Source of the DNA: an uncultured archaeon
Lineage (GTDB): Archaea; Asgardarchaeota; Thorarchaeia; Thorarchaeales; CAZPUN01
DNA: 32,000 bases
Direction of reading: 5' to 3'
Assembly: GCA_964589775.1 (NCBI GenBank)
Contig: CAZPUN010000064.1
Location: 30,001-62,000 of the forward strand
Part shown: positions 23,201 through 24,750 of the stretch, piece after piece
How positions within the stretch are numbered: the first letter of the stretch is position 1
Layout of the letters: each line of letters opens with the position of its first letter
The notes under the pieces: generated by a model
The model's input: only the letters and a program-made list of their open reading frames with translations
Database searches by the model: none
What the model was told of the DNA's origin: nothing
Made by a program: the position numbers and the translations under genes

Positions 23201-23734
23201 TTCATTGATCTGTATTCGGAATTTCTGAAGTCCCGTTCCCTCTTCAATAATATCTCGGACCGCAACAGGTTTTAAATCGCCAAGCAAATCTACGTTTCCC
23301 TGCGAAATAAACATAAATGGGTTATCCGGATTTATGTTCATTGACGAAACGAGCTCTTCAACTTGAGATGCCTTCACTCGCCGTCCATCAACATAGAAAT
23401 AGAGTAATCCGTTCTTCGTGATTTTTCTCATAATTGAAATGCGCTTTTCACCTGTCCATAATATAACTTCAACTTCCGCCTCATTTGTTCCATCGCGAAT
23501 AAAGCTTCGCCAATTTGGATATCGTTCATCTCTTTGATTGGAGCCTAACGCAAATTTTACTGCCTGAAAAATTGCAGATTTACCCGCTCCATTATGCCCG
23601 ACAATGACATTATACTGAGGTTCGAGATAAATGGTGCCCTCTGCATGGCTTAAGAAATTCTTAAGTCGTACGGATTCTATATACACTCGATTATTAATGG
23701 GTGTACTCGTTTTTAGCTCTGCGGAAATTGTCAT
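20300..23734 (-). CDS. smc: SMC ATPase, Smc5/6-like
   Basis: LKNFLSH, Walker A GHNGAGKS, Q-loop FISQG, two long coiled coils around a hinge (VKGPI...AIE), signature SGGQQ, Walker B FFDE, D-loop LD, terminal QFVVLTP. Confidence 0.93.
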   Translation of the reverse strand: MTISAELKTSTPINNRVYIESVRLKNFLSHAEGTIYLEPQYNVIVGHNGAGKSAIFQAVKFALGSNQRDERYPNWRSFIRDGTNEAEVEVILWTGEKRISIMRKITKNGLLYFYVDGRRVKASQVEELVSSMNINPDNPFMFISQGNVDLLGDLKPVAVRDIIEEGTGLQKFRIQINEEESRIADTKTRIDKLTADRKFIELKLDNLQESMKRLIKKRELKARIKKLERESIFSELEHFSNLYEDMKKELGELESSLEEIELRIKEISALIKEIDGQIIQLETRQKELSEKKGSIKSQIITLKEKMKQYKEEIKSLINENDSLVSENHDFEKEIKFLESKKKGNTQILKQLEAKIMGKRKELAHLQDSLDKIQEDMHKFLEWEKKRNAANKELQDAEYERKQIESKLKSKKDRIKTIEQYLKSIEADIGTVFKSITDLDDRELAKREIAIKDEIERLRIRQLNERSKLNDLEKRARNLREKLENLEDKIPEPIKKFQAELEKYQLESVKGPIITEISFDDSLATAIELLFDKRVLLGFVTTDENDFKLLHKIRAKAKADCCIFLLRGEPLPIPDTSIISKVEGPSEILAVLNDYMGEVQLVKTESTLLKTALKVEGKFISPMGRIIESRRTIIIDYPSMKEQGLISVSQIEKELKANEREQKKTNKAITKISQDIEKLNEEYSEIRFIRRQLPKIRSKLIQKEKYIAEIRNIRKEIEPLKEQLLQAEIKSEEKRKKLREIEQQIPEGFEKLERKKIRIEKQIEKIRITIRKLAKEIQDKESEIRVIENKIDLTTHKVMQNESRIKEIQQKLNSQNQYITELNDTIKGLETDLELITAELDKIDENIKSLNEQRVKNNNKSLEYKYSRDTKFKEHIIMLNQLSKWSHKIENLKEKIKRESLERPPKIMPYEEIIHEIERLNIELSTYDDVDESIEHKKLELAQELNRIDKLTSSLRNEISDALKALEKLREDYKRELTDVLFKIEYEVNDILSNVSFDGKIQLKIIEPESDNTDELGVQVSASIRDSPYKPLTAASGGQQTLVAFSLIIALQRFNFVPITFFDELDIYLDPAYTELVSQIIRNESKKTQFVVLTPGKSLRFLEHADKVIGVTNPRDVNVSIIINSPKIIETDSGIKILAEEQAGT

Positions 23735-24750
23735 TTATCTCCCCCGACTAATCTCTCAATTGTATTGAGTTGTCGTTTGGCAGCTGCAAGTCTTTCAATT
23801 CTTTTTCGTGGTGGTCCAATCAGCAAGAACGGATACTTTGCAAGTATTTCTTGATCCTTTTCATCTAGTGGAAAGCCGTCGTTTAAGTTTTGGATCACCC
23901 TATGTACCTGATTCGGATTTTCACTTACAGCCATTAAATAATATTGCTCTATCAATTCCTCGGGTATTAATTGCTCAATTAATCTGGCAGGTGGGTTGTC
24001 TCTACCTTGCCCCCATCTACTTAAATTCATCCTATGATACTTTTGGGATATTGGCAATACATTATTTCTAATAATCGAAATAAGGGATATATGCTCTTTC
24101 TTGCTTTTCACTTTCACATATTTTATCAAGCGGTTTAAATCTCCATATGACCAGCCTTCTGTAAGATTAACGGCATCTGCTAATTCTCCCGCTCGTTCTT
24201 CAAAAAATTGTTTAAGTAGATTTTCTCGATCTTTATCATCTGGTGGTGGTAATGGAATGTGCAAATCAAAGCTGCTGAGTACACCTGCATCTATCTTTTC
24301 AGGATTTGAAGTTTGGGCAATAGTTATAATTTGATTATCTTCAAGATTAGCACTGCTAAGCCATTCATATAATTTAATTGCATTTATTGAACTGCTTGGT
24401 GCTATATCTTCAAGTCTGGGAAGGTATAATATACATGGTGCATTGGTATTCGCATATGTCATCAAGGCGTCTAACTTGTTTTTCTCAATAATTTCACCTA
24501 ATTGAAAAGTAACAAGTGGTAATTCTAGCGTCTTTGCTACTTTTTCTGCGATTGTTTGTATTGGTTCTCCCGGTAAAGAGATAATTAAAAAAGCTCCGTG
24601 AAATTCTCTCTTATCCTCCGGTGAATCAATATCCGTAAGTAACTCGATGATTTCATTTACGATCCTGTTTAATCCACCGATTAGAGACGTCTCTCTTATT
24701 CGTTCTGGAGAAAGCAGCCCAAAGTTTTCCCCAATTACCTCTTCTGTCAT
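23731..24750 (-). CDS. Degenerate (probably inactive) classical AAA+ domain protein
   Basis: Colinear with an AAA module (IGGL, APCILY, P..ID...L..F...PPPD..DR, TEGWS..DL), but Walker A reads SLPGEPIQT, Walker B reads LYLPRLE, and the Arg finger is absent. Confidence 0.78.
   Translation of the reverse strand: MTEEVIGENFGLLSPERIRETSLIGGLNRIVNEIIELLTDIDSPEDKREFHGAFLIISLPGEPIQTIAEKVAKTLELPLVTFQLGEIIEKNKLDALMTYANTNAPCILYLPRLEDIAPSSSINAIKLYEWLSSANLEDNQIITIAQTSNPEKIDAGVLSSFDLHIPLPPPDDKDRENLLKQFFEERAGELADAVNLTEGWSYGDLNRLIKYVKVKSKKEHISLISIIRNNVLPISQKYHRMNLSRWGQGRDNPPARLIEQLIPEELIEQYYLMAVSENPNQVHRVIQNLNDGFPLDEKDQEILAKYPFLLIGPPRKRIERLAAAKRQLNTIERLVGGDK

Follow-up and report, generated by a model that had tools for sequence, protein, structure and literature searches.

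A degenerate AAA protein encoded at the head of an SMC operon in an Asgard archaeon is predicted from its sequence to have kept the AAA shape with all of its ATP-using residues lost, and its gene is maintained by purifying selection. From gene context, we give a probability of roughly 55% to the reading that this pseudo-ATPase is an ATP-independent accessory subunit which regulates the loading, release or ATPase rate of an SMC5/6-related complex. The gene lies in the window (the whole stretch of 32,000 nucleotides that was analysed) and is present as one copy in a genome of 2.16 Mb that is 97% complete. Shared loci suggest that the genome belongs to an Asgard archaeon of its own family, in an order common with the family of the named Thorarchaeota. 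Members of the protein family are named hypothetical, ATP-binding or FtsH in the databases.

AAA fold and lost catalytic residues

The gene, the regions discussed below and the reference protein used for the motif alignment are as follows.

23731-24750, minus strand: pseudo-ATPase gene, 339 aa, with a degenerate classic-clade AAA module and a family-specific C-terminal domain
24556-24579, minus strand: degenerate Walker A, residues 58-65, SLPGEPIQ, placed by alignment with Vps4
24415-24432, minus strand: degenerate Walker B, residues 107-112, ILYLPR, placed by alignment with Vps4
24265-24315, minus strand: degenerate sensor 1 QTS (residues 146-148) and second region of homology LSSFD (residues 158-162), arginine finger absent
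24046-24246, minus strand: helical lid subdomain, residues 169-235, with R175 and the TEGW motif kept
23740-23985, minus strand: C-terminal helical domain, residues 256-337, the best-conserved part
3577-4782: Vps4/CdvC with MIT domain and intact motifs, the reference

The frame of 339 residues is open and the AAA scaffold was retained, as the original prediction had held. Pfam AAA (PF00004) matched the protein at 35.5 bits against a cut-off of 21.2, and in the Foldseek comparison that had been suggested as a check the AlphaFold model (pLDDT 86.6) matched classic-clade AAA domains at E 1e-9 to 1e-10, with probability 1.0 against FtsH, spastin, p97 and Vps4. The window protein has a classic-clade AAA fold, and the alpha/beta core and helical lid are held in common with Cdc48/p97/VAT, Vps4, spastin, FtsH and PAN (PF00004). 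Unlike these proteins it has lost Walker A and B, sensor 1, the arginine finger and the pore loops, and it belongs to a separate branch.

Alignment with the Vps4 encoded in the window reproduced each replacement that had been read from the sequence at the outset (GPPGCGKT to SLPGEPIQT, IIFMDE to ILYLPR, ATN to QTS and LSRF to LSSF). Within Walker A (S58-L-P-G-E-P-I64-Q65) the lysine is changed to Ile and the threonine to Gln with the P-loop Gly61 retained, the Walker B Asp-Glu pair is replaced in ILYL-P111-R112, the sensor 1 Asn has become Ser148 and the position of the arginine finger is taken by Ser160. The protein accordingly has no GxxxxGK[T/S] Walker A, hhhhDE Walker B, sensor 1 Asn or arginine finger. 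Both pore-loop regions had been described as shortened and were found to be so, loop 1 by 6 residues and loop 2 by 8 relative to Vps4.

Conservation across lineages was concentrated outside the ATPase core, with 23 of 82 positions conserved in the C-terminal domain, 10 of 67 in the lid and 5 of 118 in the core. The C-terminal domain (about residues 256-337) was modelled as all-helical and reached a pLDDT of 88.7 when folded alone, while Pfam returned nothing above its cut-off, in agreement with the earlier description of an unrecognised helical domain of about 90 residues. Its last helix is basic in all lineages (net charge +4 to +5.5) and could contact DNA or an acidic partner. Searches with this domain alone gave a best Z of 5.5 among 48,161 chains in a VIA fold search, nothing at E 0.001 in Foldseek and TM values below 0.5 in the atlas, which does not in itself establish a novel fold. 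Atlas matches of the model were limited to a Thorarchaeota cluster and one cluster of 323 aa. A profile comparison with the tails of the paralogues in families f16 and f28 found a short similar stretch at a probability of 1.4%.

The operon and its probable SMC5/6-related identity

The genes that follow the pseudo-ATPase on the same strand were assigned as below.

20300-23734, minus strand: SMC protein, 1144 aa, with Walker A, Q-loop, signature and Walker B present, probably of the SMC5/6-related type
19670-20296, minus strand: kleisin-like protein, 208 aa, whose family profile has its best PDB matches in the ScpA C-terminal domain (weak, E 0.008)
19146-19673, minus strand: kite-like winged-helix protein, 175 aa, with no ScpB match in Pfam
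18704-19066, minus strand: TFIIB-type zinc ribbon and winged-helix protein, 120 aa, which follows the kite in most Thorarchaeota loci

The end of the pseudo-ATPase reading frame overlaps the smc start in an ATGA at 23731-23734, the gap between smc and the kleisin gene is 3 bases and the kleisin and kite genes overlap by 4 bases. Translational coupling of the pseudo-ATPase with smc suggests that the two products are made in matched amounts and assemble together. A place for the dead AAA protein at the head of an smc operon was part of the original prediction and was borne out, as smc followed directly in 111 of 113 loci, with the other two ending at contig ends. In these 111 loci the smc start lay between -38 and +300 bases from the stop of the pseudo-AAA gene, mostly at 0-25, although the 115 sequences represent 89 distinct proteins and the related genomes are not independent. 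The gene order was shared by Thorarchaeota, Loki-type, Helarchaeales, Baldrarchaeia-type and 'Odinarchaeota'-labelled records and by MK-D1. A protein of 260 aa (P0152, L127:2021-2803) has the C-terminal domain with no smc in the next 890 bases of its 3.7-kb contig.

Among 301 Asgard genomes the C-terminal domain and the operon's kite occurred together in 136, the domain alone in 8, the kite alone in 14 and neither in 143, and in the three kite-only genomes that were checked the operon breaks at a contig end. The distribution of the domain tracks that of the kite by family and almost by genome. In families f6, f12, f17, f20 and f27, SMC operons of like layout lack a preceding AAA gene, so the AAA protein cannot be a subunit that every SMC of this type requires.

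The zinc ribbon gene was not seen after the kite in the Loki-type loci that were fetched; its product is possibly a regulator or a fifth partner in Thorarchaeota. In many Thorarchaeota loci (L006, L008, L010, L016 and others) the kleisin and kite genes are separated by an inserted gene of about 446 aa that runs in the opposite direction. A promoter and terminator scan performed at chance level, the method being unsuited to archaea.

A canonical Smc-ScpA-ScpB operon with SMC_hinge, ScpA and ScpB matches is located on another contig of the genome (C57), whereas the window operon has no ScpB match, which makes the window operon a second SMC system of this genome. The presence of two SMC operons, one of them related to Smc5/6, has been published for Asgard and TACK archaea (van Hooff et al., 10.1101/2024.01.07.573240; Yoshinaga and Inagaki, PMC8665677). 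The first of these reports places the SMC5/6-related genes of MK-D1 at 495-497 on the plus strand, 315 genes before genes 808-810 on the minus strand. The orthologous operon of Promethearchaeum syntrophicum MK-D1 (NZ_CP042905.2, about 4.297-4.304 Mb) is encoded on the plus strand and precedes the canonical operon, on the minus strand, by 323 kb. It has a dead AAA gene 25 bases upstream of its smc, and the two ScpB matches of the genome are located away from it. Gene order and spacing, compared across two assembly versions, suggest that this operon is the published genes 495-497, and this mapping together with its position makes the 175-aa protein a candidate kite. MK-D1 also encodes a third SMC-like protein of about 1200 aa, at about 3.32 Mb (NZ_CP042905.2), and the opposite strand nearby carries a ScpB-like gene.

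The Smc5/6 affinity of the window SMC heads, as judged by profile comparison, has mixed support. The N-lobe profile had Smc5 as its best PDB match, at 97 bits versus 86 for Pyrococcus Smc (the canonical SMC scored 21 bits against Smc5), whereas the C-lobe profile preferred Pyrococcus Smc over Smc5. A TP is conserved at the H-loop position, which we take to resemble Smc5/6. Profile searches bearing on an Nse4-like kleisin and an Nse1/3-like kite gave generic winged-helix and weak ScpA matches only. PADLOC gave no match of either protein to JetA or JetB of Wadjet JetABCD, and there is no JetD-like neighbour in the window.

The order of smc, kleisin and kite and the coexistence with canonical Smc-ScpAB are held in common with the published archaeal SMC5/6-related operon; the upstream AAA or pseudo-AAA gene, present in some Asgard families only, is the difference. 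No fourth gene is mentioned in the available portions of van Hooff et al. (10.1101/2024.01.07.573240) and the term 'AAA' is absent from its main text. A search of literature other than subscription journals found no published description of a pseudo-AAA gene upstream of smc, and no SMC complex with a classic AAA subunit was found in the literature searched. The core of three genes has thus already been published while the upstream AAA gene is new to the searched literature.

Selection and graded loss of catalysis

The C-terminal-domain profile gave exactly one match each in 144 of the 301 genomes, distributed over eight families, and no match in the remaining 22 Asgard families sampled. Homologue searches returned Thorarchaeota-named relatives at 26-33% identity and one relative at 70%. 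All named matches were Asgard except one Bathyarchaeota-labelled record, which clusters with a Loki-type protein.

The loss of all catalytic motifs and a long branch would be expected of a decaying gene copy. This explanation was refuted by the selection data and its probability is close to nil. Frames are open across the 144 genomes, and the closest relative has 70% protein identity with saturated synonymous sites, comparable to the 71% of the SMC itself. Because dS is saturated in that comparison, dN/dS was taken from other orthologues, where the median was 0.087 over 90 close pairs (the first 40 listed are all Thorarchaeota, and the pairs are not independent and include some duplicates), the AAA part and the tail being alike. 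The original prediction of a pseudo-enzyme under selection, for which dN/dS among orthologues had been named as a check, was upheld by this value, by the single copy in 144 genomes and by a motif loss fixed in 78 of 78 Thorarchaeota-type orthologues. It had been set against the possibility that orthologues are intact and selection on this copy relaxed; intact orthologues were rare and selection was not relaxed.

The extent of the loss was graded between lineages. The 78 Thorarchaeota-type orthologues all lack the Lys of Walker A, the Glu of Walker B and the arginine finger, and the Walker A region of Thorarchaeota reads GPPGTDF; the Walker A Lys is also absent from all 16 orthologues in family f9. 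Loki-type members, including that of MK-D1, have an AAA part eroded past Pfam recognition. Walker A alone was kept in a Helarchaeales protein, and f19 members kept Walker A and one arginine with the Walker B Glu changed to Asn. Only two members with the C-terminal domain were fully intact, namely P0088, from a record with the label Odinarchaeota, and a protein of genome G260 whose gene is divided between two contigs; both precede smc. In families f7 and f8 about one third of the core has been lost (occupancy 0.68) with the lid and C-terminal domain kept. A core that can be truncated in this way suggests that selection keeps the lid and C-terminal binding surface and not a ring or nucleotide site. 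The f19 operon also has an SMC shortened to about 832 aa beside the Walker-A-intact AAA gene (L086, L087, L096, L116 and L117), and the f28 and f19 proteins have an additional N-terminal coiled coil.

AAA rings with inactive subunits are known, and this precedent applies to the idea that the pseudo-AAA protein joins an active Cdc48, PAN or Vps4 ring as an inactive subunit, or inhibits such a ring, and shares no more than a transcript with smc. The genome encodes two Cdc48, one Vps4 and two further single-ring classic AAA proteins. The idea is nevertheless very improbable, as conservation is lowest in the ring-contact core, which f7 and f8 have in truncated form, the pore loops are shortened and the family is not Vps4-derived and branches apart from Cdc48 and PAN. 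A quick tree of the AAA module, with long branches and without any IetA that has been studied by experiment, joined the family with an intact sister clade and with its nearest relatives, the IetA-like proteins, in a branch separate from Cdc48, PAN and Vps4 (SH-aLRT 99). Vps4 as the parent was rejected, with a clade of dead members and Vps4 at p-AU 0.017 (also a quick tree), and the MIT domain that is the hallmark of Vps4/CdvC had no match in the window protein. With the AAA domain by itself, a monophyletic family was neither supported nor rejected (p-AU 0.5), and the long branches leave the number of independent losses uncertain.

Relatives, neighbours and proposed role

The closest named family by profile is that of the IetA-like ATPases of IetAS (PADLOC IetA; NCBIfam NF042959), with which the intact family members have the ATN and VWRRFD motifs in common. 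IetA was the top PADLOC and NCBIfam match at E 1e-9 for the window protein, where the score was 32 bits against a cut-off of 510, and at E 4e-66 for P0088. Unlike in IetAS, the partners are smc, kleisin and kite, there is an extra C-terminal domain and catalysis was lost in most members. No IetS (S8 protease) gene adjoins the window gene, whose neighbours are smc and a CGGC gene, and in other loci smc follows. An S8 subtilase gene, identified in L187, was observed upstream of the AAA-less SMC operon of family f27 (L187:1929-7564, L188) and deserves mention since an S8 protease is the partner of IetA. A plasmid search with an intact member gave general CDC48-like matches only.

Related AAA genes were also found at other SMC operons, at the following loci.

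L121/L163:926-7041, L164-L168 and L185: sister system
L161:4912-11326, L181:3890-9974 and L182: f28/f16 loci

The sister clade has an intact AAA protein of about 300 residues without the C-terminal domain, is sporadic in Asgards and heads SMC operons in six of six loci. Its system consists of the AAA gene, an SMC gene of about 1050 aa and four small genes of about 155, 158, 246 and 159 aa, and is divergent from three genes of about 690, 403 and 420 aa. The small genes matched kleisin and kite profiles weakly (E 0.002-0.05) and were not significant in other searches. In f16 and f28 an AAA protein with Walker A intact, Walker B lost and a different winged-helix-like tail precedes a divergent smc-kleisin-kite set. 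The presence of the sister clade and of f16/f28 at SMC operons indicates that this AAA branch was paired with SMC operons before catalysis was lost, or else on more than one occasion.

Extrachromosomal DNA is a target of restriction by both Smc5/6 and Wadjet (PMC10586767), and with this precedent the operon might be an anti-plasmid or anti-virus SMC system in which the AAA protein serves as sensor or safety catch, in the way that IetA acts as antitoxin to the IetS protease. Such a role would fit the IetA match and the sporadic intact sister system, itself a candidate defence system with one copy located near TIR-LRR, metallo-beta-lactamase and HEPN genes. For the main family it is decidedly unlikely, because this family is single-copy, near-universal within its lineages and set in stable housekeeping surroundings, and at the loci examined it has no linked gene for a JetD-like nuclease or an S8 protease.

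Upstream of the operon, two genes were of interest as a possible source of motor activity.

25519-27216, plus strand: MoxR-type AAA+ ATPase with motifs intact, divergent from the operon
31257-32000, plus strand: start of the vWA-domain partner of MoxR, which runs off the window

These are about 4 kb apart (window:25519-32000) with genes of 1164 aa (a weak DUF7743 match) and 119 aa between them; in other Thorarchaeota MoxR and vWA genes adjoin. The pseudo-AAA protein could be an adaptor or substrate of MoxR and vWA, which would supply the lost motor and act on the SMC ring. Of 49 named Thorarchaeota loci, 48 have a MoxR gene immediately upstream and the remaining one is cut. The MoxR-vWA pair and the operon run in one direction in f7, f8 and L125, in L124 vWA directly precedes the pseudo-AAA gene, and fully intact AAA loci have no adjacent MoxR-vWA (L122). 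We regard this as rather unlikely, however, as the pair is not beside the operon in the f9, f19 and f24 loci, with the most eroded AAA being that of f9 and f24, and the window MoxR is divergent and separated by about 4 kb from its vWA gene.

The reading we prefer is that of an ATP-independent accessory subunit, the evidence for a shared complex being genomic throughout, from gene order, coupling and co-occurrence. A conserved dead AAA protein nearly always encoded first in an SMC5/6-related operon is probably an unrecognised fourth partner, and the role of scaffold, loader or adaptor put forward in the original prediction is likewise suggested by gene context. Briefly, an active IetA-like AAA ATPase would have become coupled to an SMC operon in an ancestor, where it probably remodelled or released part of the complex, and most lineages would then have given up ATP use but retained the lid and C-terminal domain for binding. 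The present protein would be synthesised in step with the SMC via the ATGA overlap and would dock on the complex as an ATP-independent adaptor controlling its loading, release or ATPase rate. A complex prediction with the SMC head halves and kleisin scored 0.00, which is evidence neither for nor against.

Nse5/6 are accessory regulators of loading and ATPase activity in eukaryotic Smc5/6. The role proposed here for the pseudo-ATPase would be like that of Nse5/6 (SLF1/2) as a non-core factor regulating loading and ATPase. The folds are unrelated, Nse5/6 being alpha-solenoids according to van Hooff et al. (10.1101/2024.01.07.573240), and homology was neither found nor is it claimed. As AAA-less operons occur in other Asgards and no eukaryotic counterpart of the pseudo-AAA protein was found, no claim is made on the origin of eukaryotic Smc5/6.

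A broader and more tentative possibility is that an Asgard SMC5/6-type complex has its own AAA remodeller, which is intact in a few lineages and in the sister system and became a pseudo-enzyme stepwise elsewhere, possibly with MoxR-vWA as the motor. If so, the intact, half-dead and dead versions would constitute a natural series on SMC ring loading and release. The gradient from intact to dead members illustrates clearly how a pseudo-enzyme evolves. So far the evidence for an archaeal SMC5/6-related complex is phylogenetic alone, and three subunits have been assumed; a conserved fourth gene alters the set needed for reconstitution, and its presence in the cultured MK-D1 makes the function testable.
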